Origin: an uncultured Gemmatimonadota bacterium
Lineage (GTDB): Bacteria; Gemmatimonadota; Gemmatimonadetes; Palauibacterales; KS3-K002
Assembly: GCA_964345885.1 (NCBI GenBank)
Contig: CAYFSW010000033.1
Span: forward strand, 45,584 to 109,583
Direction of reading: 5' to 3'
Length of the DNA stretch: 64,000 nt
Shown here: positions 1,391 to 61,444 of the stretch, piece by piece
Layout of the letters: each line of letters begins with the position of its first letter
Position numbering within the stretch: position 1 is the stretch's first letter
The notes under the pieces: generated by a model
What the model saw: only the letters and a program-made list of their open reading frames with translations
Databases searched by the model: none
Told to the model about the DNA's origin: nothing
Made by a program: the position numbers and the translations under genes

Positions 1391-1497
1391 GAACATCGAA
1401 CATTGCACATCCAACATCGAACGCCGAAGCGACTAGTAATCGACGAACGTAGTCCCTTCAACGTTCGATGTCCGATGTCCGATGTTCAATGTTCGAC
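1391..1497. repeat. Element A: palindromic heptamer-unit repeat (GAACATC family)
   Basis: Left arm gaacatc gaacatt gcacatc caacatc gaacgcc (1391-1425); right arm cgttc gatgtcc gatgtcc gatgttc aatgttc (1462-1494) is its imperfect reverse complement. Confidence 0.85.
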
Positions 1498-1517
1498 AGA
1501 AGTACATCCGCCGCCGA

Positions 1518-3569
1518 TCAGCCTAGCGCAACAAAGAACGGCGCCAGCACCAGGCTCACCACACTCATCAGCTTGATCAGGATGTTCATCGACGGGCCCG
1601 ACGTATCTTTGAACGGGTCGCCGACCGTATCCCCGACTACCGCTGCCTTGTGCGGATCCGAGCCTTTACCACCCATGTTGCCCGCCTCGATCCACTTCTT
1701 GGCGTTGTCCCAGGCACCACCGGCATTGGCCATGTAAAGCGCCAGCAAGACGCCGGCCAACGTCGCACCGGCCAGCAGACCGCCCAGCGCTTCTACGCCC
1801 AGGAACGAGCCTACCAGAACTGGCGCGATTATCGCCGTCAAGCCGGGGACGATCATCTCGCGTAGCGCCGCACGGGTCGAGATGTCCACGCAGCGTGCGC
1901 TATCCGGCTTGGCCTCGCCGTCCATGAGACCGGGGATCTCCTTGAACTGGCGGCGCACCTCGGTCACCATCCCCGAGGCGGCGCGCCCGACCGCAGTCAT
2001 AGTCAGCGCCGCGATGACAAAGGGCAACGTGCCGCCGATCAAGAGCCCGATGACCACGACCGGGCTCACCAGGTTGATTCCGGTTTCCTGAAGGCCCACC
2101 GCGGACGAATAGGCGCTGAACAGCGCCAGCGCGGTGAGGGCGGCGGAGCCGATGGCAAAACCTTTGCCGATGGCCGCCGTGGTGTTGCCGATGGCATCGA
2201 GGCTATCGGTGATGCTGCGTACCGCTGGACCCAAGCCGCTCATCTCGCTGATTCCGCCGGCGTTGTCGGCGACCGGACCGTAAGCGTCCACCGACATCGT
2301 CACGCCGACCGTGGCCAGCATGCCGACGGCCGCGATACCGATCCCGTACAGTCCAGCAAAATGATACGCCAGCCAGATGGCGGCGCAGATGAGCAGCACC
2401 GGCACGGCGGTCGAGATCATCCCGACGGCCTGGCCGGCGATGATGTTGGTGGCCGCACCAGTCTCTGACGCCTGGGCGATCTTCCTGACCGGCTTGGCCG
2501 CCGTGTAGTACTCGGTGGACAGACCGATGAATATCCCGACCAACGAGCCGCCGAACATCGCCCAGAACGGCCCCATCGTGCCGAAGTCCGGATTGCCCGC
2601 GAACACGTCGAGCTCGGCAGTCAACCACCAGGCGGCGATCCAGAAGAGGATCGCTGCGATGTAGGTGCTATTCCGGAGCGCCGCTGCGGGATTCATCTTT
2701 TCCATCAGCTTCAGGGAGAAGACCCCGATGACGCTGGCGATCAAGCCGAACCCGACGAAGAGGACCGGCAGAGTGACCGCCGCCAGACGGTGATCGGTCA
2801 TGATCTGTACCGACGTCGCGCCGATCGCGATCGTGGCGATGATCGACCCGACATACGACTCGAATATGTCGGCGCCCATTCCGGCCACGTCGCCGACGTT
2901 GTCGCCCACGTTATCGGCGATCGTCGCCGGGTTACGAGGGTCGTCTTCGGGGATCCCCGCCTCGACCTTGCCGACCAGGTCGGCTCCTACATCGGCCGCC
3001 TTTGTGTAGATACCGCCACCGACACGAGCGAAAAGAGCGATCGAGCTCGCGCCCATTGCGAACCCCGCGATCACTTCGCTGAACAGCTTGAAGGACGAGT
3101 CGTCGGTCAGGCCGCCCGCGAAAATGAACAGTACAACGCCGATGCCGAGTAGGCCCAGGCTGCCCACCGACAGACCCATCACGGCACCACCGTTGAAGGC
3201 TACGCGTAACGCCTTACCTTGACCCGTGTCGCGCGCCGCCTCCGAGGTGCGGACATTGGCCTCCGTCGCGGCGTTCATACCGAAAAACCCGGCCATCAGC
3301 GAACAAAGAGCGCCGCCGACGTACGCCGCCGACGTCGGGAGCGAGCCGAGCGCCACGTACAACAGGAACGCGACGACGACGATGAACGGGATGAGCACCG
3401 AGTACTCGCGCTTCAGAAACGTCCTAGCGCCTTCCCGGATCCGCGATGCCAGCTCGGCCATCAACTCCGTGCCGACGGGCTGTCGTTTCAGGTAAACGTA
3501 GATAAGCGCGGCAACCACCAGCCCCAAGAGCCCCAGGGGCGCCGAAAACGTCACCGCAACGTTCGTCAT
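1518..3569 (-). CDS. hppA: Membrane-bound pyrophosphatase, K+-dependent, probably Na+-translocating
   Basis: [87 protein letters not shown]; many TM segments. Confidence 0.96.
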
Positions 3570-3594
3570 TAGCCCTCCTCAGGTCTTTTTCCTG

Positions 3595-3693
3595 TCAACA
3601 TCCAACACCCAAAATCCGATACTTCCGAGGCTGGATATTGGGTCTCGATCGTTGACGCTTGACAAACAGGAATGGTTGGGTGTTGGGTGTTGA
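3595..3693. repeat. Element B: palindromic heptamer-unit repeat (CCAACAC/T family)
   Basis: tcaacat ccaacac ccaaaat ccgatac (3595-3622) pairs with atggttgg gtgttgg gtgttga (3672-3693), abutting the pth stop codon. Confidence 0.75.
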
Positions 3694-4281: not shown

Positions 4282-4283
4282 AA

Positions 4284-9079: not shown

Positions 9080-9150
9080 TTGGCCCGGGTGGGGTCGAAC
9101 CACCATTTCTGGATCCAAAGTCCAGCGTCCTGCCATTAGACGACGGGCCA
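9080..9150 (-). tRNA. tRNA-Gln(TTG), CCA not encoded
   Basis: Minus strand TGGCCCGTCGTCTAATGGCAGGACGCTGGACTTTGGATCCAGAAATGGTGGTTCGACCCCACCCGGGCCA; acceptor stem TGGCCCG/CGGGCCA, anticodon arm CTGGA-CTTTGGA-TCCAG, TTCGA T-loop. Confidence 0.95.
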
Positions 9151-9371: not shown

Positions 9372-9968
9372 GTGAAGTACGTCAGCTGGGTCTTGATCGT
9401 CTGCGTGTCGCTGGCCGCGGGGCAACCTGCAGGTCATGGCACGAGCGGCATCGCCAGCTGGCATTCTTTCGACCAGCTCGTCCTCTCTCCCGCGGTTTCA
9501 GATAACATCGCGCTGCTCTTCGACCAGTTCGACACTGAGGTGGTGCTGTGCCTGGAAGGGGAACGGCGCGGGAATGACCTCTATATCACCGATTTCCGCA
9601 TGCCGCACATCCTGTTGTCGGAGATGGGGCGCGTGCAGGCGGCCGGCTGCATGCCGAGCCGCAGAGCTGTAGGCACGTGGCACAACCACCCGCCGCTGGG
9701 AGCGAGCTTCGCCACTTCGAACGCGGAGGTACGCGCCCGCAACTGCTACCTGTCACGCACCGACATCGTCGACTTCCGTCGTCGGAGCGACGCGCTGGTG
9801 ACGGTGGTGTCTTGTGGGCCGCACACCTTTGCCTACTGGAGGCGTGGCGACGTCGAGTCGGCGGCCGAGGACGCGGCCATGCTACCGCCGCCCCAGGAGC
9901 AACTAGTTCGCTCGGAGATCGGCCGAGACCTTCAGGAAAGCCCGCTCACACAGGCCCGCGAGCGCTGA
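9372..9968 (+). CDS. Exported JAB/MPN (JAMM)-like domain protein
   Basis: Signal-peptide-like MKYVSWVLIVCVSLAAG; EVVLCLEG, VGTWHNHP, LSRTD; SD GGGGAGG. Confidence 0.6.
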   Translation: MKYVSWVLIVCVSLAAGQPAGHGTSGIASWHSFDQLVLSPAVSDNIALLFDQFDTEVVLCLEGERRGNDLYITDFRMPHILLSEMGRVQAAGCMPSRRAVGTWHNHPPLGASFATSNAEVRARNCYLSRTDIVDFRRRSDALVTVVSCGPHTFAYWRRGDVESAAEDAAMLPPPQEQLVRSEIGRDLQESPLTQARER

Positions 9969-10833
9969 CCAGCCTCGCGCTTTCCATCACATCCGTCAAC
10001 TCAGCCACGGCGTCGTCGCGCTGCCGCTCGTTCTCGTAGACGGCGAACAGCGCCGAACCGCTGCCGCTGAGCAGGGCAATTAGCGGCTGCGTCTCGCTCA
10101 ACGCCTCCCTCATGAGACGCAGGTCGGGTCGCAGACCGAAGATCACCGGCTCGAAGTCGTTGACGGCCGCCGAGCTTACCACCTCCCAGGACGAGATGTC
10201 CGAGTCGGACCGCAGCCGCGGCTCGACACCTGTCGTCCGCTCAGCGACCTGTCGCTCGTCCCAGTGGGCGTAAGCCTCCGCCGTTGAGATCGCGACATCG
10301 GGTAGCACCAGCAGCATCGGTCGCGGCGCTAGCCCCTGGCAGGCCAGTATGCGCTCCCCTCGCCCCCAGGCGAAGGCGAGGGGCGTATCAGCGGCGAAGA
10401 ACGTAACATCGGCTCCGAGCCGGGAAGCGAGAGCGAGGGTCTCGTCCCGCGAAGGCCGAGCCTCGACCGCTGCGGCGAGGACCCTCAAAACGGCGGCCGC
10501 GTCACTCGAGCCACCTCCCAGCCCCGAGCCCGGTGGTATGTGTTTTTCCAGCTCGATCTCCACACCAGCGGGCGTGCCGCCACGCTCCAGGAAAAGGGTA
10601 GCAGCGCGCGCTGCGAGATTCTCGAGGTTTGGCGGTGCGGTCTCCGGGCCACTGACGCGGATGGAGACACCCGGCTCGTCACTCACTCGGATCCGCAGCT
10701 GGTCGGCCAGGTCGATTCGGCAGAACACGGTCTCGATGGGATGGTAACCGTCCGGGCCGCGTGGGAAGATACGCAGCGACAGGTTCACTTTGCCCTTGGC
10801 CTCGACCAGCTGCCAACCTTCGTCTGGTTTCAT
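9946..10833 (-). CDS. ispE: 4-diphosphocytidyl-2-C-methyl-D-erythritol kinase
   Basis: AKGKVNLSLRI, GYHPIETVF, KHIPPGSGLGGGSSDAAA, LGADV, SGSGSA; start taken as ATG 10833 because the longer ORF start lies in a repeat. Confidence 0.95.
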   Translation of the reverse strand: MKPDEGWQLVEAKGKVNLSLRIFPRGPDGYHPIETVFCRIDLADQLRIRVSDEPGVSIRVSGPETAPPNLENLAARAATLFLERGGTPAGVEIELEKHIPPGSGLGGGSSDAAAVLRVLAAAVEARPSRDETLALASRLGADVTFFAADTPLAFAWGRGERILACQGLAPRPMLLVLPDVAISTAEAYAHWDERQVAERTTGVEPRLRSDSDISSWEVVSSAAVNDFEPVIFGLRPDLRLMREALSETQPLIALLSGSGSALFAVYENERQRDDAVAELTDVMESARLVSARGPV

Positions 10834-10840
10834 TTCAGTA

Positions 10841-11030
10841 TCCAATATCCGACATCCAGTGAGCAAATGTTCAAGGTGTATTCACCTGACAAGCATCAAG
10901 TCCCAACCTCCACCGGGAAATGGATGCGGGCGAGCGTTTATCCTTGGAAATCGGATATCGGACATTGAAACATGAAAGTCGAATAATCCTTGAAACTCGA
11001 TAGAAGGATATCGTCTAATGGATATTGAAA
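10841..11030. repeat. Element C: heptamer-unit repeat with inverted arms (CCAATAT/TCGGATA family)
   Basis: tccaatatccgacatcc (10841-10857) pairs with tcggatatcgga (about 10951-10962); further degenerate units to about 11030. Confidence 0.65.
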
Positions 11031-11083
11031 TGGCCCTCACAGCGCGTGTACGCTTCTCTCGTGCAGGATCCGGGTCGTACGGA

Positions 11084-12106
11084 TCAGGCGCCCTCTTCTA
11101 CGATCTCCTCGCTGTGCCCGACCTCGCCCCACGACAGACCTAGCCGACCCAGGTAGAACAAGCCGAGGATCGTCACCGGCGTGAACGTGGTGATGTGGAA
11201 CGCCAGGGCATAGCTCAGCGCGAGTCCTGCCGGGACGCCGAACGGGCTGAGAGCGATACGAGCGCTGGCTTCGAACAGCCCGAAGAATCCGGGCGACGAA
11301 GGCACCGACACGATGAAGGCCATCACCCCCTGCAGGAAGACGGCGCCCAGGAACCCGGGCTCGGTGATGTTGAATGCGAGCATGCCGATCCAGAGTGCCA
11401 GAGCGCCCCACAGCCAGTGGGCCAGCGACCAGACGAGCCCGGCCACCACCAATCTGGGGCTCCGCATCGCGCCGAGTCCTTCGATGAAAGACCTGAACAT
11501 CTCGGCGATCGACTCGGCAGCCCTCCTGGGCATCAGCCGCCCGATGGTGGATCGAAATATCCGGTCCACGAGATCGGGCCGAAAAATCAACAGGAGAAGC
11601 GCTACCGCGGCACCGCCGAAGATCACCAGGACCAGGAACAGTTTGCTTGCCACCTCGTCGCCCAGGCCAGGGGCGACCCGGAAGCCTGGCATGAAGAGCG
11701 GCGCCGCCAGGAAGAGGGCCAGCGTCAGCGCGTCGAACAGCCGCTCGACAACTAGCGAGCCGAACGCGGCACTCGCGGTTATCGGCTGGCTGCGGCTCAG
11801 CGCATAGGCCCGGGCGAACTCGCCGACGCGCGCCGGCAGCAGGTTGTTGGCCATGAACCCGATGCAGGTGCTGGCAAACCTTGCATCGAATGACGGCTCG
11901 GCCAGGGCAGGCCTGAGAAAGACCTTCCAGCGCGCCGCGCGGATCAGGAACGCGGCCGTTTGGATGACGACTGCCAACGATAGGAGCCAGAGGTCGGCAG
12001 CTCGAATGTGCCCCCAGACCTCCGTGAGAGACACGTCGTGGAGAACCCAATAGAGGAGGGCGAGGCTGACGACCAGCCCCAGGATCGTCCGCCAGCCGCG
12101 AGTCAT
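11084..12106 (-). CDS. Lysylphosphatidylglycerol synthase-like TM (UPF0104, flippase-like) protein
   Basis: RAARWKVFL, GFMANNLLPARVGEFARAY, GSLVVERLFD, VPSSPGFFGLFE. Confidence 0.88.
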   Translation of the reverse strand: MTRGWRTILGLVVSLALLYWVLHDVSLTEVWGHIRAADLWLLSLAVVIQTAAFLIRAARWKVFLRPALAEPSFDARFASTCIGFMANNLLPARVGEFARAYALSRSQPITASAAFGSLVVERLFDALTLALFLAAPLFMPGFRVAPGLGDEVASKLFLVLVIFGGAAVALLLLIFRPDLVDRIFRSTIGRLMPRRAAESIAEMFRSFIEGLGAMRSPRLVVAGLVWSLAHWLWGALALWIGMLAFNITEPGFLGAVFLQGVMAFIVSVPSSPGFFGLFEASARIALSPFGVPAGLALSYALAFHITTFTPVTILGLFYLGRLGLSWGEVGHSEEIVEEGA

Positions 12107-13524
12107 TGGACCGCGGCTGTCCGGACCAGTGCGTGCTCGATCAGCCCGAGCGCTTCTTCGAGGAGGCTGTGCGCGCGGTCGACGTCGGGCGCGTCGACTC
12201 GCAGTAGAGCCGCGATCTCGCTCGACAGCGAACGAGCGCGTGACACCGCATCCTCGGCCGTATAAAGCAACGACTCGATGTCTACGGTCGGCCCCCGCGT
12301 CGGATGCGTCGCCGCCTCCAGCGAATCATCTGCCCTCTGCAACGCGCTCTCCCGCGTTTCCTTTTCTGATGCCTCGAGGTACGAGCGGAGTGCCGCCACA
12401 GTAACGGCGAGGTCGATGGCGATCGCCTGCAGCCGCCAGGGCGGCGCGTCGCGACTCGCGCGTACGGCGGCACCGGCCCGCCGCGCCACGCGACCGAGCC
12501 CGGCGTGGCCGAAGGTGACGGCGCGCTCGCGCAGCTGCCTGAACGAGTAGGTCAGCCGTTCGGCGATCCGCGGCGCCCCGTCAGGCGCGTGTGCCAGCTC
12601 CGCGCGTAACCGCTCGATCGTGTCGAGGCTGCCCGTGGCCTCTAAGGCGAAGAACCCCTCCCACGAGCCGGCCCCACGTTCGGCCATCGGACACTCTTCG
12701 ATGTGCGGGCCGGGCTCATCGTGGAAGAGTTCGCTTATCCAGGTTATGTCTCGCTGGGCAGCCGTCTCAAGAACCTGATCCTTGAGGTCCTCGATCTCCA
12801 CGGCTCCGTCAGCGACGCCACTCGGCTGCTCGCCCCGGATCAGCTCCGTCGCCACATCGTCCAGCGCCTGCCGCGCCCGACGGAAGAGAACCAGGTGACC
12901 GGGCCCCACGGTGGCGCTCGTGTCGGCGATCCGCAGAATCACCTCTTCCAGCGCGGTGACGGCCGGACCGACGGCGGGGATCTCGTCGACCCCTTCGATG
13001 CCCCTCAGAGGCCGGATACGCCGCAAGAGTCTCTTGAGCGGCTCACGATTGCGAGGGTCGCGCTCGAGTATAACCAGCGATTCGCCGATCTCCGACGCGA
13101 GCCCGCGCAGCTCGGTGCCCAGGTAGCGCCGGAACCGCTCGTCATCCTTCGGCGGTGGCGGTGGCGCCGCCGAGTCGCCCAGCCGTTCCGCGATCGACTC
13201 GGCCCGCTTGGCAATGTCGGCGGGCGGCGACTTCACCGAGTCCACCAGCCCGCGGATCTCTTTGAGCGCCGACTCCATGTTACCCTTGAGCTCCGCACCC
13301 CAGTGCCGCTTTCCTGCCACCAAATCCGCCGCCGCCGCCTGCACGGCGCCCGCAGCGCGAGCGATCGCATCCTGGTCCGCCATCCGCGCGCTGCCGCGCA
13401 GCGCGCGTGCGAACCGCCTCAGTTCGTCGGCGTCGGGCGTCGGACCTGCGCTGAGGGCCCGATCCATCTTGTCCAGGTAGTCGCCCGATTCGTCGGCGAA
13501 GAATTCCAGCAGCGTTCTGGGCAT
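12103..13524 (-). CDS. Protein with three Hpt-like domains lacking the phospho-accepting His
   Basis: LLEFFADES...RRFARALRGSARMA; LLRRIRPLRGIEGV; LTYSFRQLRERAVTFG; no kinase or CheW domain visible. Confidence 0.7.
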   Translation of the reverse strand: MPRTLLEFFADESGDYLDKMDRALSAGPTPDADELRRFARALRGSARMADQDAIARAAGAVQAAAADLVAGKRHWGAELKGNMESALKEIRGLVDSVKSPPADIAKRAESIAERLGDSAAPPPPPKDDERFRRYLGTELRGLASEIGESLVILERDPRNREPLKRLLRRIRPLRGIEGVDEIPAVGPAVTALEEVILRIADTSATVGPGHLVLFRRARQALDDVATELIRGEQPSGVADGAVEIEDLKDQVLETAAQRDITWISELFHDEPGPHIEECPMAERGAGSWEGFFALEATGSLDTIERLRAELAHAPDGAPRIAERLTYSFRQLRERAVTFGHAGLGRVARRAGAAVRASRDAPPWRLQAIAIDLAVTVAALRSYLEASEKETRESALQRADDSLEAATHPTRGPTVDIESLLYTAEDAVSRARSLSSEIAALLRVDAPDVDRAHSLLEEALGLIEHALVRTAAVQ

Positions 13525-13528
13525 TTCC

Positions 13529-14266
13529 CTAGCCCCCCACCCCGCGTCTCGCTTCTGTGACTATCTGCAACATCTCGCGTACAGCCCGCTCCATCCCGAC
13601 GAATACCGCTCGGCTCACAACCGAGTGTCCAATGTTCAGCTCTTCGATCCCCGGGATCGCCGCCACCGGCGAAACGTTCTCGTAGGTCAGCCCGTGACCG
13701 GCGTGCACCGCTAGTCCGACCTCATGCCCCAGCAACGTGGCACGCTCGAGGCGCTGCAACTGCTCGCCCCGGCCCCCGCGACTCGCGTTCGCGTACTCGC
13801 CCGTGTGTAGCTCGATTGCGTCCGCTCCCAACTCGGCCGCATTGCGAATCGTCTCCTCGACCGGGTCGATAAAGAGTGAGGTCTTGATGCCCGCTTCACG
13901 GAGCCGAGCGAGCGACTCAGCGACGCGCCGGCGACGCCCTGCATCGCCGAGATCGAGCCCTCCCTCGGTCGTGACCTCCTCACGCCGCTCCGGCACCAGA
14001 GTGGCCTGCATCGGCCGGTGCTCCAACGCGAACTTCAACACCTCTTCTTCGACCGCCAGCTCCAGGTTCACGCCGGTGCGCGCCGTTTCCAGCAACAACA
14101 GCACGTCACGGTCTTTGATGTGGCGACGGTCCTCCCGCAGGTGTACGGTTATCGCCTGCGCCCCGCCCAGCTCGGCCAGGACAGCAGCACGGACGGGGTC
14201 GGGTTCGTCGGTTCGCCGTGCCTCACGGACCGTCGCAACGTGATCGAGATTGATGTACAGCCTCAT
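13529..14266 (-). CDS. pdxJ: Pyridoxine 5'-phosphate synthase
   Basis: [60 protein letters not shown]. Confidence 0.97.
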
Positions 14267-15150
14267 CCCGGAACGGCCTTTCCAGTCAACCAGGACTTGA
14301 TCTCCGCCTCGATCGCCGCGGCCGTCTCGGCGTCCAGTCCCTGCTCGCGGCCTAACTCGACCGCCTCCAGCGCCAACCGCCCATAAAGTTCACGCCTGCC
14401 AGCGGCCAGCGACTCCAGGTGTCCCCTCACCGTCGCCAGGTCACCGCGCGCCACCGGGCCGGTCAGCGCGCGCGGCAGGCCGGGTCGCTCCAAGTTCGCC
14501 AGGGCGCCACCCCACAACGGCTGCAACGCTTCTGCCGCCTCGGCGCGGCCTACGTGCACGGCGTCGGCCAGCAATCGTGTGGCCACCGAGACACAGGCTA
14601 CAACATAGTTGGAGGCGAACACGCACGCTGCATGATAGCGTGCTTTGTCCTCCGCGTGAACCTCCAGCATCCGGCCGCCTGCAGCCTCGACGATCCGCGC
14701 TGCCCCGGCCCGTGCCTCGCCTTCCCCCTCGTAAGTGAAGAAGGCGCCCCGGAGCCGCTCGGCGCCTTGCGCCGGATCGGCCACGGTCTGCAGCGGATGC
14801 AACGACCCAACGGCGTAGCCCGCCTGGGCCAGCGGCGCGAGCACAGCCGCCGGCTGCGCGCCACTATGGTGCAGAGCCACACACCGGGCGCCGGGCTGGC
14901 CCAGCCGGGCGATCTCGGCAGCGACCTCGGCGATGACCCCGTCGGGTACCGCCAGCAGCAGGCAGGTACCGTCGGGTGGTGGTCCCGGTACCGCGCTGGC
15001 GTAGCGCACAACCGGCGACTCCATTAGCGGGTGGTCCGGCGCGCGCTTGCGCCGACCCACGAGGAGCACCCCGCCCGACCCGGAACTCGCGAGCACCGTG
15101 CCTAGCGAGAGACCCATCCGACCGGGACCGATGATCCAGTACACGTCCAT
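14263..15150 (-). CDS. Rossmann-like + DUF2520 oxidoreductase (PanG-like ketopantoate reductase family)
   Basis: [51 protein letters not shown]. Confidence 0.85.
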
Positions 15151-15154
15151 GCGA

Positions 15155-16459
15155 TCAGGCCGCCGGTGCCTCGATGGCTACGCCGTCTCGCGCCCGCAGA
15201 CGACCCAGAGCATCGGCAGGCAGCCGAGCCGTCAGCCGGATCGACGTTCCTCCCTCCTCCCGCGTCAGGACCTCGCCCTCCCTGTAGATCTCTGCCAAGA
15301 CGCCGCCGGCGCTGGCCGGGATGGTCAGCGTGACGATCGACCAGCGTCGGCGAATCGTCTCCCTCAGCCTGGTCCGCAGAGACTCGAGCCCGGTCGCCTC
15401 GACCGTCGAGGAAAAGACGTGCGCATCGAGAAGCGCCGCCGCCCGCTGCTCGATCGCGGCTTGCTCCACGTGGGTCAGGCGATCGACTTTGTTGAACACG
15501 ACCAGCCGGCCTTTGGGATTGAAATGAAGTTCGGCCAGCACACCCTCCACCACCTCGTACTGCTCCTCCCAGTGCTCGAACGACACGTCGACCACATTGC
15601 AAAGCAAGTCGGCCTCGTTCGCTTCCTCCAGCGTCGCCCCGAACGACGCAATAAGGTGGTGGGGCAACTTGCGGATGAACCCGACCGTGTCGGTCACCAG
15701 TGCGTGAAAGCCTTCACCGAGATCTACCGCTCGGGTGGCCGGGTCGAGCGTCGCGAACAGCCGGTCCTCGATGAAGAGATCCGACCCTGACAGCCCGGCG
15801 AGTATCGAGGATTTGCCCGCATTCGTGTAGCCGACCAAGGCGACCCGGAACTCACCGACGCGCCCCTTACGCTCGATCTCGCGCTGCCGTGCCACCTTTT
15901 CGAGACGACGCTTCAGGTCGCTGATCTTCCGCCTGATGGTCCGCCGGTCGGTCTCGAGCTGCGTCTCACCGGGACCCCGCAGGCCGATGCCGCCGCGGAT
16001 GCGCGAGAGGTGGTTCCACATCCGCGTAAGTCGTGGCATCAGGTACTGCAACTGGGCAAGCTCGACCTGCATCTTGGCTTCCGCGGTCCGCGCCCGCAGA
16101 GCGAAGATGTCGATGATCAGTTCGGTGCGGTCCATCACCCGCACGCCGAGCGTGTCCTCCAGATTCTGACCCTGCACCGGCGAGAGGTCCTCGTCGAAGA
16201 TCACCAGGCTCGCCCCGCTGCTCGCGACGACCGACCGCAGCTGCTCGGCCTTGCCGCTACCGATATAGTAGGCCGGGTGCGGCGATCGGACCTGCTGCTC
16301 GAACGTGGCAATAACCTCGGCACCCGCTGTGCCTGTTAACGACTTCAACTCGCTCAGGTGATCGCGAGCTTCTTGCCGGCTCGTCTCCGGACCGGGAGCG
16401 GTCAGCAGGACCACCCGGTCCTTGGGAAGCTCTATCTCGTGGACTTTGTCGTTAGCGAT
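15155..16459 (-). CDS. hflX: Ribosome-splitting GTPase HflX
   Basis: GSGKAEQL, DRTELIIDIFALRART.EAKMQVELAQLQY, GPGETQLETDRR, GYTNAGKSS, LFATLD, DTVGFI, NKVD. ORF track start is 16414; frame is open to 16477 and an SD points to ATC at 16459. Confidence 0.96.
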   Translation of the reverse strand: MANDKVHEIELPKDRVVLLTAPGPETSRQEARDHLSELKSLTGTAGAEVIATFEQQVRSPHPAYYIGSGKAEQLRSVVASSGASLVIFDEDLSPVQGQNLEDTLGVRVMDRTELIIDIFALRARTAEAKMQVELAQLQYLMPRLTRMWNHLSRIRGGIGLRGPGETQLETDRRTIRRKISDLKRRLEKVARQREIERKGRVGEFRVALVGYTNAGKSSILAGLSGSDLFIEDRLFATLDPATRAVDLGEGFHALVTDTVGFIRKLPHHLIASFGATLEEANEADLLCNVVDVSFEHWEEQYEVVEGVLAELHFNPKGRLVVFNKVDRLTHVEQAAIEQRAAALLDAHVFSSTVEATGLESLRTRLRETIRRRWSIVTLTIPASAGGVLAEIYREGEVLTREEGGTSIRLTARLPADALGRLRARDGVAIEAPAA

Positions 16460-16511
16460 CTCTGATCCTACTCCCTTTCAATGTTTGGTGTCTCGTTTCA
16501 CTAATAATACC

Positions 16512-17894
16512 CTAGCCGCGTTCCCGGCGTGCCGCTCGCCGTTTGGTCGACCACGCTTCGAGTCGCTTGGCGATCTCGGCCTCGAAGCCCCTGCCGGACG
16601 GTTCGTAGAAGCGGCGCTCGCCCAGCGAGTCAGGCAAGTACTCCTGCTGCGCCAGCGCATCGGGCTCATCGTGGTCGTACTTATAGTCCGCACCGTACCC
16701 CAGGTCCTTCATCAACCGCGTGGGCGCGTTGCGGATGTGTAGCGGCACCGGTTCGCCGGGCGTTTCCCGGGCCGCCGACGAGGCACTGCCGAAGGCTTTA
16801 TAGATCCGGTTCGACTTGGGGGCCGTCGCCAGATAGACCGCAGCCTCCGCCAACGCCAGCTCACCTTCCGGCGACCCGAGAAAGTGGTAGGCGTCCTTGG
16901 CGGCAGTTGCGATCCAGAGGGCGCGCGGGTCGGCCAACCCCACATCTTCCGTCGCCATACGGATCAGGCGCCGGCAGATATAGAGCGGATCTTCGCCACC
17001 GTCCAGCATGCGAGCCAGCCAATAGAGGGCGCCATCCGGGTCGGAGCCCCTCACCGCCTTGTGCAACGCCGATATCAGATTGTAGTGCTCCTCGCCCGAC
17101 TTGTCATAGTGGGCGAAGCGCTTCTGGAACGCCTCGGCAGCGACGCGAGCTGTGATGCTGCCGGCACCTCCCACCATAGATGCGGCGACCTCGAGGGCCG
17201 ACAGCGCGCGCCTCGCGTCACCGTCGGCGGCGCGAGCCAACAGGTCGAGTGCGTCGTCCTCCACCCGCAGCCGTGAGCCGCCGAGCCCGCGTTGCTCGTC
17301 GGCCAGGGCCCGTTCGCAGATCGCTAGCACGTCTTCTTCACTCAACGGCTCGAGCACCAAGACGCGCGACCGACTGAGCAACGCGCTTATGACCTCGAAG
17401 CTCGGGTTCTCGGTGGTGGCGCCAATCAAGATGACCGTCCCGGCCTCCACGTGGGGCAGAAACGCGTCCTGCTGTGCTTTGTTGAAGCTGTGTATCTCAT
17501 CGCAGAACAGGATCGTGCGGCGGCCGGTAGCGTTGAGCCGCTCGCCGGCTTCAGCGATGATCTGACGGACGCGCGGCACGCCCTCGGTGACGGCACTGAA
17601 GGGAACGAACGCGGCATCGGTGCGATCGGCTATGATCCGGGCCAATGTCGTCTTGCCGCTGCCCGGCGGCCCCCAGAAGATCAGCGAACCCAACTCGTCA
17701 CGCTCGATCATCTCACGCAGGATCCGGCCGGGCCCGACCAGGTGCTCCTGGCCCAGAAACTCGTCCAGGTTGCGGGGTCGCATCCGGGTCGCCAGCGGTG
17801 CGGCGGGCGAGTTCTCGTCCGCTATTCCTCCCCCCTGGAGCGGCTTGGACTCCGGGGTCGGAAACAGTTCGAGTTCTTCCTTCATCTCCTCCAC
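16512..17894 (-). CDS. rarA: Replication-associated recombination protein A (RarA/MgsA)
   Basis: [74 protein letters not shown]. Confidence 0.96.
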
Positions 17895-17897
17895 GTC

Positions 17898-19154
17898 CTA
17901 GTCGGGGAGCCGCCGGCGCGCATACTCGAGCAAGCGTTTCCTCGTGTTCAGCTTCGGATCCTCGATCACGGCATCCAGGCAGGCCTCGAGGATCCGACCG
18001 AACTCGGGACCCGGCTTCAGCCCCAGCTCCTTAAGATCGCTCCCGTCGATCGCCAGCGCCGCCAGCGTAACCGGGTCACCTCTACGGAGCACGCCGAGCA
18101 CCGTGCTCGCCTGCCCGGCCAGAGCGGAACGACCCTCGGCGCCCGTGCCCAGAGCCCCCTCGCGGCAGAAATGTAGCCGCAACGCATCGCGCGCGTCGTC
18201 CGGACCCACATGCCTGAGCCAGCGACGCGCGGCGACGACATCGCCCGACTTGGGCAGGGACAGGTCGAGCGCTCGGCCCAGCACCTGCACGTCGCGCAGC
18301 TCCGCGTTCGAGAAGCGGAGCCGTCTCATCAGCGGCTCGATCTCCGAACCGGCCGGGGCGAATAGCGTCGAGAGACGAAGCCGGAGCCGGCGCTCCGCCA
18401 GACCATCTATGGCCCCCAAGATGACCCGCCACTCGGTGTCATCGACGGACGCGAGCTCCGGGACCAGAACGGCCAGGGCACCCGACCTTCGATAGAGGTC
18501 AAGAACTCGCGACGGTACCGGCCCTGACAACACCTTGAGGATTTCCTCACGGACTCGCTCCCCCGACAGTCGCGGAAGTCTGGGCGTTGCAGCGACCAGC
18601 GCAGCCCAGGTCGCGGGCTCGATCTCCAGCTCGTAGCGGCCCGCGAAACGCAGCCCGCGAAGCACGCGCAGGTAGTCCTCGGCAAATCGCGTCGCCGGCT
18701 CGCCCACGCAGCGCAGCAAGCGCCGCTGTAGGTCTTTCCACCCAGCCATCGGATCGTGGAACTTGTTATGCAACGGGTGATAGGCGATCGCATTGATGGT
18801 GAAGTCGCGACGTGCAAGGTCCTCGTCCAGGCGGTCGGCGTACTCGACCACGGCGTGCCTGCCGTCGGTCTCGATGTCGCGCCGGAACGTGGTTACTTCG
18901 TAAAGGTTTCCGTCTTCGCCACGCACGCCCACCGTGCCGAACTGGATGCCCACCGGGTAGGACGGCCGGAACAACTCGAGCACCGTCTCGGGCCGAGCTG
19001 CCGTCGCCAGGTCCCAGTCCCCGCGCGAACCACCGAGCAGCGCATCGCGCACGGCGCCACCGACTGCCCACGTCTCGTGTCCCCGATCTTCCAGCCGTCG
19101 AGCGATCGCCGCGACCGCACCCGGCACGTCCAGCTTTTCGGGCAGACCTTTCAC
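17898..19154 (-). CDS. cca: CCA tRNA nucleotidyltransferase / poly(A) polymerase family
   Basis: VGGAVRDALLG, DWDLAT, EVTTFRRD, DLARRDFTINAIA, RFAEDYLRVLRGLRFA, ERVREE; the tRNA in the window lacks an encoded CCA. Confidence 0.9.
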   Translation of the reverse strand: MKGLPEKLDVPGAVAAIARRLEDRGHETWAVGGAVRDALLGGSRGDWDLATAARPETVLELFRPSYPVGIQFGTVGVRGEDGNLYEVTTFRRDIETDGRHAVVEYADRLDEDLARRDFTINAIAYHPLHNKFHDPMAGWKDLQRRLLRCVGEPATRFAEDYLRVLRGLRFAGRYELEIEPATWAALVAATPRLPRLSGERVREEILKVLSGPVPSRVLDLYRRSGALAVLVPELASVDDTEWRVILGAIDGLAERRLRLRLSTLFAPAGSEIEPLMRRLRFSNAELRDVQVLGRALDLSLPKSGDVVAARRWLRHVGPDDARDALRLHFCREGALGTGAEGRSALAGQASTVLGVLRRGDPVTLAALAIDGSDLKELGLKPGPEFGRILEACLDAVIEDPKLNTRKRLLEYARRRLPD

Positions 19155-23855: not shown

Positions 23856-23970
23856 GGGAGTCGGGGAATACCGCATTTTCTTGGGACTCGGGGAATCGTG
23901 GAATCTGGGAATACGGGATCCGCGATCGGCTAATCCGTGGATCCGTGGAGTCCGTGGAATCGGGGAAGTC
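23856..23970. repeat. Element D: 8/9-mer tandem repeat (GGGAATCG / ATCCGTGGA family)
   Basis: gggactcg gggaatcg tggaatct gggaatac gggatccg ... tccgtggagtccgtggaatcgggga (23942-23966). Confidence 0.8.
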
Positions 23971-37535: not shown

Positions 37536-37550
37536 GATCCCGCACCCACC

Positions 37551-37612: not shown

Positions 37613-37624
37613 GATTGGCCAACC

Positions 37625-42553: not shown

Positions 42554-42630
42554 GGGGGTGGAAGTTGGGCGGGTGCCCGGGCTTCGCGCAACCGCAGTGG
42601 CGGGTTGGGTCGGGAGGCACTGTGGGAGAC

Positions 42631-42697
42631 GGTACGTCGGTAATGAGGCGACAATCAGGTTACCGCCTTACCGACGCACCGACGCACCGGATACCGG
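42631..42697. repeat. Element I: octamer-unit hairpin (ACCGACGC family)
   Basis: ggtacgtcggtaa (42631-42643) pairs with ttaccgacgcacc (42668-42680); continues gacgcaccggataccgg. Confidence 0.8.
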
Positions 42698-42700
42698 CCG

Positions 42701-45100: not shown

Positions 45101-45263
45101 CGATCAAACCTCCTCCCCGGGCATGAGCCGGCCGGGGCATCTCAGGCTGAGGCAAGCGCCATGCCGACGCGGATGGCTTGCCGACAGGCAGTATAAGGGT
45201 CAACCGCGAATGCAGTGTCCACCTCTGGGAAGGTCGGTGTCAGAAGCGAACAGTCGGCAAGCC

Positions 45264-45363
45264 GGTACGTAGGTGCCTCAGTGCGTCGGTTGCCGCCCGA
45301 TTACCGACGCACCGACGTACCGGCGTAACGGTTACCGGCGCACCGATCCACCGGCGCACCGGC
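45264..45363. repeat. Element J: octamer-unit hairpin (ACCGACGC family)
   Basis: gtgcgtcggt (45281-45290) pairs with accgacgcac (45303-45312); further accggcgc units to the glmS stop. Confidence 0.8.
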
Positions 45364-48739: not shown

Positions 48740-49891
48740 GTGGCTGACCAAGAGCGACGTTTCGGCACTCGGGCTGTCCACGCCGGCCAGGGACCCGACC
48801 CCACGACCGGCGCGATAATGACGCCTATCTACCAGACGTCTACCTATGCCCAAGAAGGGATCGGCGTCCACAAGGGCTTCGAGTACGCCCGCGTCTCGAA
48901 CCCAACCCGCACGGCTCTGGAACTGAACGTCGCGGCCCTGGAGGGCGCCGCGCACGGTGCCGCCTTTTCGTCCGGCGTCGCCGCCATAGAGGCGGTGACC
49001 AAGCTCCGTTCCGCCGGCGATCACATCATCTGTGGCTCCAACGTCTACGGCGGGACCGACCGCTTGTTCCGCCAGGTCCTGACTAGGCTGGGGCTGGAGT
49101 TTTCGTTCGTCGATACACGCGAGCCGCAGGCTATCGAGGCGGCGATCAAGGAGGAGACGCGGCTGATCCTGATCGAAACGCCGACCAATCCGCTCATGCA
49201 CATAACCGATATCGCGGCCGCCGCCGAGATCGCCCACGCGCGAGGCGCCTGGCTGGTCGTCGATAACACGTTCGCGACGCCCTACTTCCAGCGCCCACTC
49301 ACGCTGGGCGCTGACGCCGTCGTTCACTCGAGCACCAAGTACTTAAACGGGCACAGCGACGTCGTCGGCGGCCTGATCCTCACGTCGGACGATGAGCTGA
49401 TCGAGGGGCTGCGCTTCATGCAAAAGTCGGCCGGCGCCGTGCCCGGCCCCATGGACTGCTGGCTCGTCCTGCGCGGGACCAAGACGCTGCACGTGCGCAT
49501 GCAGGCACACGACCGGAACGGTCGGCAGATCGCCGAGTGGCTCGAAGGCGACGACAGGGTCCAGCAGGTCTTCTTCGCCGGCCTGCCGTCGCACCCGCAG
49601 CACGAGCTGGCGAAACGCCAGATGAACGGCTTCGGCGGCATGATCTCGCTCGAGCTCGGGAGCCGCGAGCGTGCCGACGCCTTCTGCCGCGCGACCCGCG
49701 TCTTTACGCTGGCAGAGAGCTTGGGCGGCGTCGAGAGCCTGATATCCGTTCCCGCCGCCATGACCCACGGCGCAGTGCCGAAGCAACTGCGCGAAGAGAT
49801 GGGGATCACCGAGGGGCTGGTCAGGCTTTCGGTGGGGATTGAGGATGTGGAGGACCCGATCGAGGACCTAGATCAGGCGTTGCCACGGTAG
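48740..49891 (+). CDS. Cystathionine gamma-synthase/gamma-lyase family PLP enzyme
   Basis: TPIYQTSTY, YARVSNPTR, FSSG, ETPTNP, VDNTFATP, HSSTKYLNGHSD, LAESLGGVESL, RLSVGIE. Confidence 0.93.
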   Translation: MADQERRFGTRAVHAGQGPDPTTGAIMTPIYQTSTYAQEGIGVHKGFEYARVSNPTRTALELNVAALEGAAHGAAFSSGVAAIEAVTKLRSAGDHIICGSNVYGGTDRLFRQVLTRLGLEFSFVDTREPQAIEAAIKEETRLILIETPTNPLMHITDIAAAAEIAHARGAWLVVDNTFATPYFQRPLTLGADAVVHSSTKYLNGHSDVVGGLILTSDDELIEGLRFMQKSAGAVPGPMDCWLVLRGTKTLHVRMQAHDRNGRQIAEWLEGDDRVQQVFFAGLPSHPQHELAKRQMNGFGGMISLELGSRERADAFCRATRVFTLAESLGGVESLISVPAAMTHGAVPKQLREEMGITEGLVRLSVGIEDVEDPIEDLDQALPR

Positions 49892-49989
49892 CCAGTGGGC
49901 GGTAGACAGTAGGCGGTGGGCGGTAATTCCCAGTTCGGATCTCGCGATTGACCACTACCGCCTACTGCCGCACCGTCTACCGCCTACCG
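49886..49989. repeat. Element K: palindromic heptamer-unit repeat (CGGTAGG family)
   Basis: cggtagc cagtggg cggtaga cagtagg cggtggg cggtaat pairs with ctaccgcctactgccgcaccgtctaccgcctaccg. Confidence 0.85.
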
Positions 49990-52712: not shown

Positions 52713-52793
52713 CAGTATGCGGTTTGCAGTTTGCGGTTCGCGGTGTGGTAGGTGTGCACCTCAGACCTACGGCACACCGCACACCGCATACCG
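52713..52793. repeat. Element L: palindromic heptamer-unit repeat (CGGTRTG family)
   Basis: cagtatg cggtttg cagtttg cggttcg cggtgtg gtaggt pairs with acctac ggcacaccg cacaccg cataccg. Confidence 0.85.
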
Positions 52794-55673: not shown

Positions 55674-55703
55674 GATGTTCGATGTTCAATGTTTCAGCGT
55701 TCA
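55674..55703. repeat. Element M: single-arm heptamer-unit repeat (GAACATC family)
   Basis: gatgttc gatgttc aatgttt cagcgtt, the same units as the element A right arm; overlaps the ubiE/menG stop. Confidence 0.7.
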
Positions 55704-57147: not shown

Positions 57148-57290
57148 ATGGGAGTTCGGGATTCAGGGATTCGGGGTTCTGGGAGCCGAGGATCCGAGGC
57201 ATCCGTGGAATCCGTGGAATCGGGGACTCGGGGAGTCCCTCCCGGAATCCCGCATCCCACGGACCCCACGGATTCCACGGATGCTCGGTC
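57148..57290. repeat. Element N: 8/9-mer repeat with a perfect 19-bp inverted repeat
   Basis: gcatccgtggaatccgtgg (57199-57217) and ccacggattccacggatgc (57266-57284), preceded by gggattca/gggattcg/gggagccg units. Confidence 0.9.
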
Positions 57291-57359
57291 GTTGCAAGTA
57301 TCTAATTCCCAACAACTTACAGTCTTGAATCGACCATTCCCGAATTCCCTATCTCCCGC

Positions 57360-57386
57360 TGAAACCTGAAGGGGGGTTCTTCCGTA
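57360..57386 (+). promoter_or_regulatory. SigW-type ECF promoter motif 2
   Basis: TGAAAC (57360-57365), 17 nt spacer, CGTA (57383-57386), ahead of the anti-sigma gene. Confidence 0.65.
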
Positions 57387-59634: not shown

Positions 59635-60487
59635 CGCAGTACTCGCGCTGGCGGTCGCGCTGGCCGCCTCCACGGCTCCTCAGGCCGCGGGCCAGACGTG
59701 GCGGACCGAGGCCAAGGCGCGGCAGCATCGCGGCCAGGAGTTTCTCGACGTCAAGGTTACCTACGCAGTCGGCAAGTTCGAGCTGAGGAGAGGGCCCGAT
59801 CGCCTGCTCTACCGGCTCGACTCCCGCTACGACGAGGAAGTCTTCATCCTGCGCAGCAACTACTTGGAATCCGAGAGCCGCGGCGACCTGCGGATCGAGA
59901 TCGATGACTTGGGTGAGGTCGACTTCCGGGACCTCAAAGACTACGACTACGAGGGTGGTAATCTGACCCTCGACCTCTCCGGCGCGATCCCGATCGTCCT
60001 CGACCTCGAGATGGGTGCAGTCGAAGCGGAGCTCGCTCTGGGTGGCCTGCAGTTGCAGCGTATCTCGTTGCAGACCGGCGCCAGCGACACCCGCGTAAGC
60101 TTCAGCGAGCCGAACCGCGAAGCTGCCGAGTTCTGCACGTTCAAGGCCGGTGCCGCCTCCTTTAGGGTAGAAGAGCTAGGGAACTCCGGCTGCCGGAGGA
60201 TGTCGGTCTCCGGCGGCGTGGGCACCTTGACCCTAGATTTCTCGGGTGAGTGGGACTACGACGCGACCGGCGACATCAATGTGGGGCTGGGGACGGTCGA
60301 GATTCGCGTACCAGCCGAGCTCGGGGTCCGGATAGAAAAGAGCACTTTCCTCATGTCGTTCGACGCGCCCGGCTTCGTCAAACAGGACGGCGGGGTCTGG
60401 GTCAGCCGTAACTGGGACACCGCAGAGAATCGTCTAACGCTATCCGTGAGCGGTGTGTTGGGCAGCGTCGAGGTCGATCGTATCTAG
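59624..60487 (+). CDS. Exported LiaF/LiaG-like (DUF2154, 'toast-rack') beta-rich protein
   Basis: Signal peptide; repeated LDLEMGAVEAELAL / AGAASFRV / GGVGTLTLDF / VGLGTVEIRVP; ends SGVLGSVEV. Confidence 0.7.
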   Translation: MRFSAVLALAVALAASTAPQAAGQTWRTEAKARQHRGQEFLDVKVTYAVGKFELRRGPDRLLYRLDSRYDEEVFILRSNYLESESRGDLRIEIDDLGEVDFRDLKDYDYEGGNLTLDLSGAIPIVLDLEMGAVEAELALGGLQLQRISLQTGASDTRVSFSEPNREAAEFCTFKAGAASFRVEELGNSGCRRMSVSGGVGTLTLDFSGEWDYDATGDINVGLGTVEIRVPAELGVRIEKSTFLMSFDAPGFVKQDGGVWVSRNWDTAENRLTLSVSGVLGSVEVDRI

Positions 60488-60498
60488 CGGCCGGCGAT

Positions 60499-61272
60499 TC
60501 AACGCCTCGCCCTAACGGGGTCGCCTCTGGCGGCCCCGTACTTTTCTGCCGCCGAATCCTCACGCGCCGATACCTCCACCGTCCCTGCCGACCCAATGAC
60601 GACGGCCGCTTCACCCACTCCCACATCCGAGTAGGTCCGGCGCAGGTTCCCAAGTTCCCGACCGTTCACCTCGAACAGCCAGGATGAATCGACCCACTCG
60701 CCGGGTATGTCCGTGATCAGATTACCGAACCGGTCGACATGGACGACGCGCCCCTCGATCTCATCCTCGCCCCTCAGCGGCGGATCGATCGACAGCAAGC
60801 ACAGCTCCTCGACCGGTGGCCCGAGTCGTTCGAGCGCGAGACCGCTCGCCAGGTGCGCCGCCGCGGGCGCGAAAACATCACGCCCATGGAAGGTCGAGGA
60901 CGGTTGCGGCCGAATGACGGTCGGCTCCGTCACCTCCACACAGCGCCAGCTCGCCGCGGCCTGCATGACCCGTGTAACGAGCCCATTGTCCGGTGCCACC
61001 ACGTAACGGTCATCTGCCGCGACGGCGATCGCCCTGCGCGCACTACCTACCCCGGGATCGACGATGGCAAGATGGACCGTGCCAGGCGCATAGAGGGCCC
61101 AGTACTGTGAGAGGGCCCAGGCAGCCGCCTCGACGTCACCGGGCGCAATGTCGTGCGTCGCATCGACCAACCGTGCATCGGGTGCGATGCCGAGGATCAC
61201 ACCCTTCATTGCGGCGGCGAAGCCGTCGGCTGTGCCGAAGTCGGATAGCAGCGTGACCACAGACATGTTCAT
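60499..61272 (-). CDS. SAM hydroxide adenosyltransferase (DUF62 / chlorinase-fluorinase superfamily)
   Basis: TLLSDFG, DATHDI, VVDPGVGS.RR, APDNGL, STFHGRDVFAP, HVDRFGNLIT. Confidence 0.9.
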   Translation of the reverse strand: MNMSVVTLLSDFGTADGFAAAMKGVILGIAPDARLVDATHDIAPGDVEAAAWALSQYWALYAPGTVHLAIVDPGVGSARRAIAVAADDRYVVAPDNGLVTRVMQAAASWRCVEVTEPTVIRPQPSSTFHGRDVFAPAAAHLASGLALERLGPPVEELCLLSIDPPLRGEDEIEGRVVHVDRFGNLITDIPGEWVDSSWLFEVNGRELGNLRRTYSDVGVGEAAVVIGSAGTVEVSAREDSAAEKYGAARGDPVRARR

Positions 61273-61280
61273 ACCGATAC

Positions 61281-61444
61281 CCAATATCCGACACTCGCTT
61301 GCCAGGTGATCAAGTGGGTCTCAGCTATCAAGGCTCGTGATCCAACGTCCAAGTGGTCAAGAATGTCTATGATCACTGGACCTCGGGTGTTGGGTCACGA
61401 ATAGTCATTGGCAACCGGTCATTGAATATCGGATATTGGATACT
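61281..61444. repeat. Element O: heptamer-unit repeat with inverted arms (CCAATAT family)
   Basis: ccaatatccga (61281-61291) is the exact reverse complement of tcggatattgg (61429-61439); right arm continues as gtcattg gcaaccg gtcattg aatatcg. Confidence 0.75.

Follow-up and report, generated by a model that had tools for sequence, protein, structure and literature searches.

The window, the whole 64-kb stretch of DNA analysed here, comes from a soil or sediment bacterium of the phylum Gemmatimonadota (G+C content 63-70%). Its genes are ordinary housekeeping ones, including those for H+-pyrophosphatase, pth, ychF, recX, glmS, dtd, purD, fpg, ubiE, an extracytoplasmic function (ECF) sigma/anti-sigma pair and Mrp, and the closest relatives of its glmS are found in metagenome-assembled genomes (MAGs) of Gemmatimonadota, at 62-68% identity. 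Between these genes lie the subject of this article, non-coding elements made of short tandem units, most of them folding into hairpins. Each element is a self-contained stretch of DNA that one genome may have and another lack at an orthologous junction between genes. The only place in which the elements persist is the dispensable stretch that separates a stop codon from the following gene's promoter or ribosome-binding site, and in some cases they have taken the place of the upstream gene's last codons and provide its stop.

The intergenic elements of the window

The elements were mapped with Tandem Repeats Finder (TRF), an inverted-repeat scan and folding. A first-pass annotation, made from the letters of the window, had listed 16 intervals of this kind; their arrays and arms were recovered by TRF and the inverted-repeat scan at the coordinates given, and 14 of the 16 are non-coding elements of tandem 7-9-nt units. 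Ten are hairpins (E1, E2, E3, E5, E8, E9, E10, E11, E13 and E14), laid out as a unit arm, a loop and a reverse-complement arm, each arm consisting of 3-6 degenerate units of 7, 8 or 9 nt; the other four are one-armed arrays or remnants (E4, E6, E7 and E12). The loops span 12-140 nt and contain no open reading frame (ORF).

E1, 1391-1497, minus strand: GAACATC heptamer arms of 4.6 and 4.4 units (45 nt, 82% complementary; minimum free energy (MFE) -50 kcal/mol), between the H+-pyrophosphatase stop (1518) and the ychF start (1380)
E2, 3595-3693, minus strand: CAACAYC heptamer arms with a loop of about 60 nt, abutting the peptidyl-tRNA hydrolase stop (3694)
E3, 10833-11030, minus strand: nested composite of TATCCRA-type units, with ends in common with E14, between ORF 11084-12106 and the GHMP kinase gene (9946-10845)
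E4, 23856-23970, plus strand: one-armed G-rich composite of GGGAATCG units, ATCCGTGGA units and then ATCGGGGA, located in a divergent gap and with no complementary arm detected
E5, 26893-27020, plus strand: CGGTRKR heptamer arms, a loop of about 60 nt, and a second unit that contains the TAG (26903-26905) with which the M16 peptidase gene ends
E6, 31743-31785, minus strand: degenerate arm remnant of the GAACATC family, 57 nt past the stop of ORF 31842-32879
E7, 35505-35620, minus strand: one-armed copy of the E13 G-arm (76% identity over 85 nt to 57150-57233), G-rich in the sense of the gene, abutting the FGGY sugar kinase stop (35621)
E8, 42631-42697, minus strand: ACCGACGC octamer arms, 3 nt past the stop of an ADOP/FtsX-type permease gene (42701)
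E9, 45261-45363, minus strand: hairpin with an extra ACCGRCGC octamer array (8 units) abutting the glmS stop (45364)
E10, 49886-49989, plus strand: CGGTRGN heptamer arms of 5.7 and 4.9 units at the downstream end of a cystathionine-synthase-like (metB-like) gene, to which it supplies the last two codons and the TAG stop (49889-49891), the TAG being part of its first units
E11, 52713-52793, minus strand: CGGTGTG heptamer arms, abutting the metallophosphoesterase start codon (52712)
E12, 55674-55693, minus strand: one-armed, three GAACATY units, abutting the ubiE stop (55694)
E13, 57148-57355, plus strand: nested G-arm/C-arm element with a core at 57148-57290 and an inner stem of about 50 bp (19 bp perfect), whose outer arms, GGGAGTTCGGGATTC and ATTCCCGAATTCCC, reach about 57355; it starts 1 nt past the ECF sigma-factor stop (57147) and ends directly before the TGAAAC-N17-CGTA promoter-like motif of the anti-sigma gene
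E14, 61281-61444, minus strand: nested, with outer CCAATATCCGACA arms and an inner CCAAsrT hairpin, occupying the entire gap between the Mrp/ApbC stop (61449) and the SAM hydroxide adenosyltransferase start (61284)

The two remaining intervals, which had been listed as an ATGGCG family, one of six, are ordinary hexamer repeats with no complementary arm and were rejected as elements. The repeat at 37551-37612 belongs to the 5' coding part of ORF 37122-37628 (168 aa, no Pfam match), and that at 42071-42096 is a (GGCGAT)4 run at the 5' end of ORF 40831-42108, which would encode (SP)4 if this ORF begins at the upstream GTG. The grouping of the other elements into families was roughly right, except that E11 belongs only loosely to the CGGT family and that E2 (CAACAYC) is related at best to E3 and E14 (TATCCRA).

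The elements are far more frequent than expected by chance. A conservative detector, which demands a TRF array of period 6-10 and a local reverse-complement partner scoring at least 12 and located no more than 280 nt away, finds 6 hairpins in the window compared with a mean of 0.03 (maximum 1) per shuffle in 100 dinucleotide shuffles of the window, and arrays of at least 3 copies number 18 compared with 1.2 in the shuffles. Detector density per 100 kb is 9.4 in the window, 3.0 in the related Gemmatimonadota loci and 0.6 in loci from other phyla. All elements fall within the 6,080 intergenic bases of the window (9.5% of its length) and fill about a quarter of them. According to the gap listing of the window, the occupied gaps comprise 12 of the 19 same-direction gaps of at least 40 nt, one of the 7 divergent gaps and neither of the 2 convergent ones.

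E8-E12 are also present in an independent Logan assembly of the source run, with 0-1 differences over their length, and an assembly artefact can thus be dismissed for these five. One Logan contig boundary falls inside the E13 array, and no strain heterogeneity in unit number was seen in the Logan contigs from the source sample. The only Rfam match in the window was a tRNA; a tRNA gene lies at 9080-9150 on the minus strand, in an 803-nt divergent gap that holds no unit-built element.

Position relative to genes and transcription signals

The anatomy of the elements was described for a set of 43 intergenic elements from the window and from related high-G+C loci, with gene ends and overlaps judged by our own gene calls. 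The period is 7 nt in 28 of these, 8 nt in 10 and 9 nt in 5; the median number of units per arm is 4 (interquartile range 3.3-4.6), and the median element length is 101 nt. Loose clustering of the unit sequences yields about 23 groups, all with the same layout, in agreement with the proposal of the first-pass annotation that several unit families share one architecture.

The upstream stop codon is the main positional landmark. The median distance from this stop to the element is 7 nt, with 27 of 42 elements located within 10 nt and 13 overlapping the called gene end; nine elements in the window begin at a distance of 0-5 nt. Much more room, a median of 54.5 nt, separates the elements from the next start codon. 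Most of the elements (30/43) separate same-direction genes, and 7 of the 43 lie in divergent gaps, away from any stop. Where E10 is present, the C-terminus of the metB-like protein reads ...DQALPR* instead of the ...ERALSAA* of two distant syntenic relatives, L081 and L082, so that the last codons have been replaced.

On the other side, several elements have immediately behind them either a conserved promoter-like motif, TGAAAC...CGTA, or the next gene's ribosome-binding site, so that hairpins are placed between the stop codon and the TGAAAC box. The TGAAAC-N17-CGTA motif in front of the anti-sigma gene (57360-57386 in the window, about 12445-12475 in L081) is kept in L081, L161 and L164; TGAAAC motifs also occur after E3 and after the elements downstream of the metB-like gene in L135, L137 and L111. 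The cheapest explanation of the proximity to stop codons is a selection filter, under which only the bases between a stop and the signals of the next gene are dispensable.

The signals expected of RNA elements are largely missing. The longest T-run within 14 nt after the 3' arm is 0-2 in all ten window hairpins, so that none of them has the G+C-rich stem with an immediate T-run that characterizes an intrinsic terminator; canonical terminators are present in the relatives L004 and L080. For the 34 elements with a known sense strand, folding is not favoured on that strand, the MFE being lower than on the antisense strand in 16 cases and higher in 18, and G.U pairs are not enriched on it (101 vs 128). 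Given that sense-strand folding brings no gain and that no T-run follows, these data lend no support to selection for an RNA fold on the sense strand or to a classical terminator. Among RNA sequencing runs, none was found to contain the sequence. Furthermore, the lack of strand bias implies that complementarity and periodicity are maintained by something that acts equally on both strands.

Two apparent trends were set aside. A 26:7 bias toward "G-rich arm first" is uninformative on the direction of transcription, being strand-symmetric for any palindrome, and was dropped as an indication of gene orientation. Stop triplets per 35 nt number 1.56 and 1.09 in the arms compared with 0.62 in background intergenic sequence, and we considered whether selection has favoured stops in all frames in the 5' arm; since the two arms differ little in this respect, no claim is made.

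In some relatives, unit arms enclose in their loop a canonical intrinsic terminator, with a G+C stem and a T-run (L018 11822-11955, L137 5417-5524, L078 11880-12026 and L046 380-487). The sequence of the inner terminator stem differs between L018 and L137, with the hairpin retained.

Gain and loss at orthologous junctions

Related loci comprised 160 loci from two collection scans and four closer relatives (L161-L164) from a homologue search, the latter with an identity of 0.75 at 4-fold sites. L081 and L082 are distant syntenic relatives, with 82% amino-acid and about 75% nucleotide identity to the window.

Comparison of orthologous junctions reveals genuine gain and loss. L081 and L082 lack E8, E9, E10, E11 and E13. 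In L161-L164, E13 is present in all four, E12 and E14 are present in none, and the E14 site is a spacer of 24-26 nt. The E11 site carries a hairpin of CGGTRGC units in L161-L163 (CGGTGTG in the window) and is empty in L164. Further pairs of filled and empty junctions consist of L124 (filled) against L098 and L108 (empty), and of L135 and L137 (filled) against L111 (empty). The first-pass annotation had contrasted its proposal with ancient invariant terminators; given this gain and loss, the latter description does not apply.

A further case of gain or loss involves L116 and L118, in which an element of 155-170 nt sits exactly between two convergent stops that, in L114, with flanks 90-94% identical, overlap as CTAG. 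Insertion into such a zero-length gap implies either a high rate of insertion or some targeting. No target-site duplication is visible at the filled/empty pairs that can be aligned base by base. Empty sites often carry a small ordinary hairpin directly after the stop, as in L082 and L081 (metB-like gene), in L111 and in L082 (glmS).

The same junction can hold different units in different genomes. The glmS and dtd genes abut or overlap in most relatives; units that follow the glmS stop are ACCGRCGC in the window, GAATGCG in L006, GGGGAAT in L011 and GGGAGCTA in L018 and L137, and five further unit types follow the metB-like stop among relatives. At about 2261-2275 of L108, a two-unit mini-array, GAGCTAGGAGCTA, of the GGAGCTA family (seen in L018, L137 and L128) occupies a junction that is empty in L098 and has a full hairpin of AGCCCAT units in L124; the mini-array may be a seed or a remnant.

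Compared with L082, where dtd lies 45 nt after glmS, and with most Gemmatimonadota, the window contains a 2.77-kb insert (42596-45363) no more than 5 nt from the glmS stop. The insert consists of the E9 hairpin, a gene for an 800-aa ADOP/MacB-FtsX permease with a 163-nt leader, and the E8 hairpin. Given that E8 and E9 form 60-nt direct repeats, alignable throughout, the permease gene may have entered through recombination between hairpin copies.

The spot between fpg and the metallophosphoesterase gene, beside E11, is also variable: the two genes are adjacent in the window, 2.5 kb of extra genes separate them in L081 (5272-7767), and L161-L163 have extra genes at 10500-19070, amounting to about 8.5 kb with DUF3604 genes in L161. 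The metagenome contigs of relatives that cover the window are short pieces only, with joints across the E10 and E11 gaps, which is suggestive but unreadable.

Copying and evolution of the arms

Copies of the elements at unrelated junctions have the order of unit types in common. The G-arm of E13, the reverse complement of E7, and E4 all present GGGAnTnC octamers, ATCCGTGGA nonamers and ATCGGGGA in this order, at 70-76% identity over 80-100 nt, and E5 and E10 can be aligned over 41 nt at 75%, with no similarity by eye between their loops. Recurrent units, such as AGCGGTG, GGGAGCTA and AGCCCAT, are found at different junctions of different genomes. The common order of unit types indicates that these copies derive from a template rather than from independent growth at each site.

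Alignments of orthologues show that the arms gain and lose whole units and that a change in the unit spreads in concert to all units of both arms. The E13 orthologues differ mainly by insertions and deletions of whole units. Their identity in terms of substitutions, 0.80-0.81, compares with 0.75-0.87 at neighbouring 4-fold sites; divergence at the level of synonymous sites means that no purifying selection on E13 is detectable, and we accordingly dropped the conservation of this element in three lineages as a sign of function. Between L104 and L112, CCGGGAG has become TCGGGAG in 5/5 units of both arms, and the pair L098 and L108 shows two changes in one arm that have their mirror image in the other, the loop having diverged. 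Through such concerted change in both arms, the unit sequences drift into many "families" while the architecture stays the same. Replication slippage and intrastrand template switching are established mutational processes, and slippage within arms combined with template switching between arms provides the simplest candidate mechanism for the maintenance of the arms.

Nature and origin of the elements

Taken together, these observations incline us, by analogy with known bacterial repeats, to consider the elements as non-autonomous dispersed hairpin repeats, or "unit-built palindromes", that resemble repetitive extragenic palindromic (REP) sequences, bacterial interspersed mosaic elements (BIMEs) and the hairpin-forming REP doublets (REPINs), and are selfish or neutral, with REP-like side effects on RNA. 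Slippage inside an arm and template switching between arms (quasipalindrome correction) would keep the arms periodic and complementary at the DNA level. Spread to new sites could proceed via a factor encoded elsewhere that recognizes structure rather than sequence, or via ectopic recombination or template switching. Once transcribed, stems of 20-50 bp located 0-10 nt after the stop would be expected, by analogy with REP elements and rRNA intervening sequences, to serve as RNase III substrates and as barriers to 3' exonucleases, and the same stems might brake the terminating ribosome. Such RNA-level effects would be side effects, perhaps occasionally co-opted. The first-pass annotation, which had suggested a common trans-acting mechanism and empty or non-autonomous sites, is partly supported as a whole.

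Several points weigh against this reading. No mobilizing gene, no target-site duplication and no movement caught in the act have been observed in the material analysed. With about 23 unit groups, one sequence-specific transposase per family is implausible. Changes mirrored between the arms are equally expected under selection for pairing, some elements, such as E13, persist across three lineages, and the hugging of stop codons could reflect a function in translation or termination coupling rather than merely a selection filter.

A specific version of the same explanation, which takes up the idea of the first-pass annotation and which we consider unlikely, is that the elements are gene-less copies of cassettes in which a four-helix-bundle gene (PF05635/TIGR02436, 23S-rRNA-IVS or Avd-like) is flanked by inverted heptamer arrays, with the pentameric protein as the trans-acting reader of the units. 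The build of the stem is the same as in the 23S rRNA intervening sequence of Coxiella (PMC4990558), and about four units per arm (interquartile 3.3-4.6) come near to a pentamer. The gene itself is missing from the sample, however, in which about 55 gene-less hairpins contrast with 0 armed genes. A Pfam scan of 30 of the 56 predicted ORFs of the window, which included nearly all ORFs under 200 aa, detected no four-helix-bundle, GxxExxY, transposase or integrase gene, consistent with the remark in the first-pass annotation that neither of the first two gene types is present. No gene of the four-helix-bundle or GxxExxY type is visible among 133 small ORFs of the related loci, for which the matches listed include only housekeeping families, although single-member matches could be missed in this comparison, and no ORF with an NIAEG-type motif, a motif of the four-helix-bundle family, occurs in 2.25 Mb of sequence. 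There is also no gene-sized loop between arrays: complementary arrays 280-1500 nt apart are chance pairs inside coding sequence only, plus one unclear case. This case, L116 3726-4521, has inverted CTGCCCCGG nonamer arrays, with a partner score of 18.5, that are separated by 722 nt and have an ORF of about 187 aa between them; the arrays may enclose this gene as unit arms or may have nothing to do with each other.

A wider proposal, speculative and slightly less likely in our estimate, is that an active, sequence-independent process writes and renews periodic palindromes at cistron ends in this Gemmatimonadota lineage and perhaps in many phyla: a structure-recognizing factor would lay down or copy 7-9-nt units beside stops, and both arms would be re-templated wholesale. 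A candidate for this factor is a ring-shaped four-helix-bundle protein that reads one unit per subunit. If such a process exists, it would explain why a single architecture coexists with dozens of unit families, why unit changes occur in every unit of both arms, and how an element can be inserted with base-pair precision between overlapping stops.

Less likely again is that the elements are regulatory RNA hairpins of the host (terminators, insulators, stabilizers of mRNA 3' ends or intercistronic processing sites) that grew in place by slippage from small post-stop hairpins and are kept by selection for pairing. This possibility accommodates the small ordinary post-stop hairpins often found at empty orthologous sites (L081, L082 and L111), the enclosure of canonical terminators by some unit arms (L018/L137, L078 and L046), the mirrored changes in the arms, and the location between a stop codon and the following promoter. 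It is harder to reconcile with the absence of a T-run after all window hairpins, with folding and G.U pairing that lack a sense-strand bias, with close relatives that do without the elements at the same housekeeping junctions, and with the evolution of E13 at about the synonymous rate. In addition, a unit order common to distant loci argues for copying over local growth, and insertions have occurred between the translationally coupled glmS and dtd genes and between overlapping convergent stops.

That the elements are REP or REPIN elements in the strict sense, moved by REP-associated tyrosine transposases (RAYTs, Y1 HUH) encoded elsewhere in the genome, appears improbable. As in such systems, there are intergenic hairpin doublets of about 100 nt near stops, no target duplication and several families per genome, and two families contain tetranucleotides given as REP-superfamily tags in PMC3733652, GTAG (in CGGTAGG) or CGTC (in GCGTCGGT). 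Yet each arm is a degenerate tandem array in place of a single imperfect palindrome of 20-40 nt and fixed sequence, which upholds the assertion in the first-pass annotation that these are not classical REPs; GTAG and CGTC are missing from most families and, where present, occur only inside the units of two families; the unit families far outnumber any known RAYT complement; and the ORFs scanned in the window include no RAYT gene.

Finally, it is very improbable that the G-rich families (E4, E7 and E13) are quadruplex-forming simple-sequence repeats with a regulatory role in DNA or RNA, as proposed for GGGAATC in Xanthomonas, and that the resemblance of the other families is mere coincidence. 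GGGATTC and GGGAATCG nearly match the Xanthomonas unit, and position and neighbour-gene orientation agree with the report on that genus, but most families (GAACATC, CAACAYC, TATCCRA and ACCGACGC) cannot form quadruplexes and yet display the same architecture, position and dynamics. Miniature inverted-repeat transposable elements fit only in part, in that inverted arms are present and no target-site duplication is visible in the base-by-base filled/empty alignments. CRISPR arrays, already discounted in the first-pass annotation, were rejected: they would alternate a constant direct repeat with spacers, whereas here unit follows unit directly and the two arms run in opposite orientation.

Significance

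Heptamer-type tandem repeats are over-represented in many bacterial genomes, without an explanation, and the literature treats the units singly. The window and its relatives display the general form, that is, a single hairpin architecture with many unit sequences; new here are a multi-family set of 7-9-nt units, mostly not G-rich, in another phylum, and evidence for turnover, copying and concerted evolution. Seeing the unit-built palindromes in this way makes tractable the questions of what copies and renews them and how post-stop stems of 20-50 bp affect mRNA and translation termination. The elements also have practical consequences because they alter C-termini, split operons (glmS-dtd and sigma/anti-sigma) and break short-read assemblies, as exemplified by the contig break in E13.

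Comparison with known systems

The attC sites of integrons are sequence-diverse, structure-conserved imperfect hairpins that directly follow stop codons and are recognized as a fold. The elements described here likewise combine diverse sequence with a conserved hairpin directly after the stop, and the permease gene, with E9 on one side and E8 on the other, has the look of a cassette. Unlike attC sites, they come with no integrase among the window ORFs scanned and no cassette array, have housekeeping neighbours and possess periodic arms; no R/L core boxes of attC were seen, no systematic search for them having been made.

Short tandem units of similar length abound in other bacteria. Cyanobacterial short tandemly repeated repetitive (STRR) heptamers form abundant intergenic arrays. 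Direct TAACTGA heptamer repeats of Beggiatoaceae, cyanobacteria and Bacteroidetes lie just upstream of start codons, with one inverted case among 170, and a heptamer unit that contains a stop triplet yields stop codons in all three frames (MacGregor 2015, PMC4679880). Abundant intergenic heptamer arrays are thus a feature in common with both TAACTGA and STRR repeats; unlike TAACTGA, the arrays in the window and its relatives form inverted pairs just downstream of stops.

The 23S rRNA intervening sequence of Coxiella contains tandem GACAGAT heptamers in a 28-bp stem that is cut by RNase III and surrounds an S23p ORF; the number of heptamers varies among strains, and this intervening sequence is considered to be selfish (Warrier et al. 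2016, PMC4990558). The long stem composed in part of inverted tandem heptamers is the same, but the Coxiella element resides inside the 23S rRNA and carries an ORF, whereas the elements studied here are located between protein genes and have no ORF in the loop.

In a Melioribacter (Ignavibacteria) MAG (L059 9420-9607), inverted CATTATT heptamer arms surround a tRNA-Arg gene (9444-9518) beside a second tRNA-Arg gene; these arms resemble a processing stem of the same unit kind.

REP elements are fixed imperfect palindromes of 20-40 nt that carry GTAG or CGTC as a tag and are served by a cognate RAYT. The REP/BIME/REPIN repeats of Proteobacteria resemble the elements described here in being intergenic post-stop hairpins, with several families per genome and no target duplication, and are likely to be the best functional analogue, by virtue of the exonuclease barrier and the effect on terminating ribosomes, even though the features that define them were not seen here; the arms here are degenerate tandem arrays with a drifting unit sequence.

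The nearest published description is that of the inverted GGGAATC heptamer arrays of Xanthomonas campestris and X. citri, which are mostly intergenic, between same-direction ORFs, and lie no more than 50 nt from a stop codon or overlap it, with 70-75 convergent pairs per genome that are able to form stem-loops and whose function is unknown; Nostoc has GGGGA(C/T)T arrays (Rehm et al. 2015, PMC4692102). The likeness includes tandem units of about 7 nt, intergenic location between same-direction genes and proximity to stops, and the ten window hairpins correspond to the convergent stem-loop pairs. The difference is that in Xanthomonas one G-rich unit per genome was studied, as a quadruplex former, whereas at least six families, of 7, 8 and 9 nt, occur within the 64 kb of the window, where only E4, E7 and E13 are of the G-tract type and five other unit families are not. 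Beyond the Xanthomonas description, the elements of this Gemmatimonadota lineage add nested and composite arms, gain and loss, the supply of stop codons and concerted evolution of the units.

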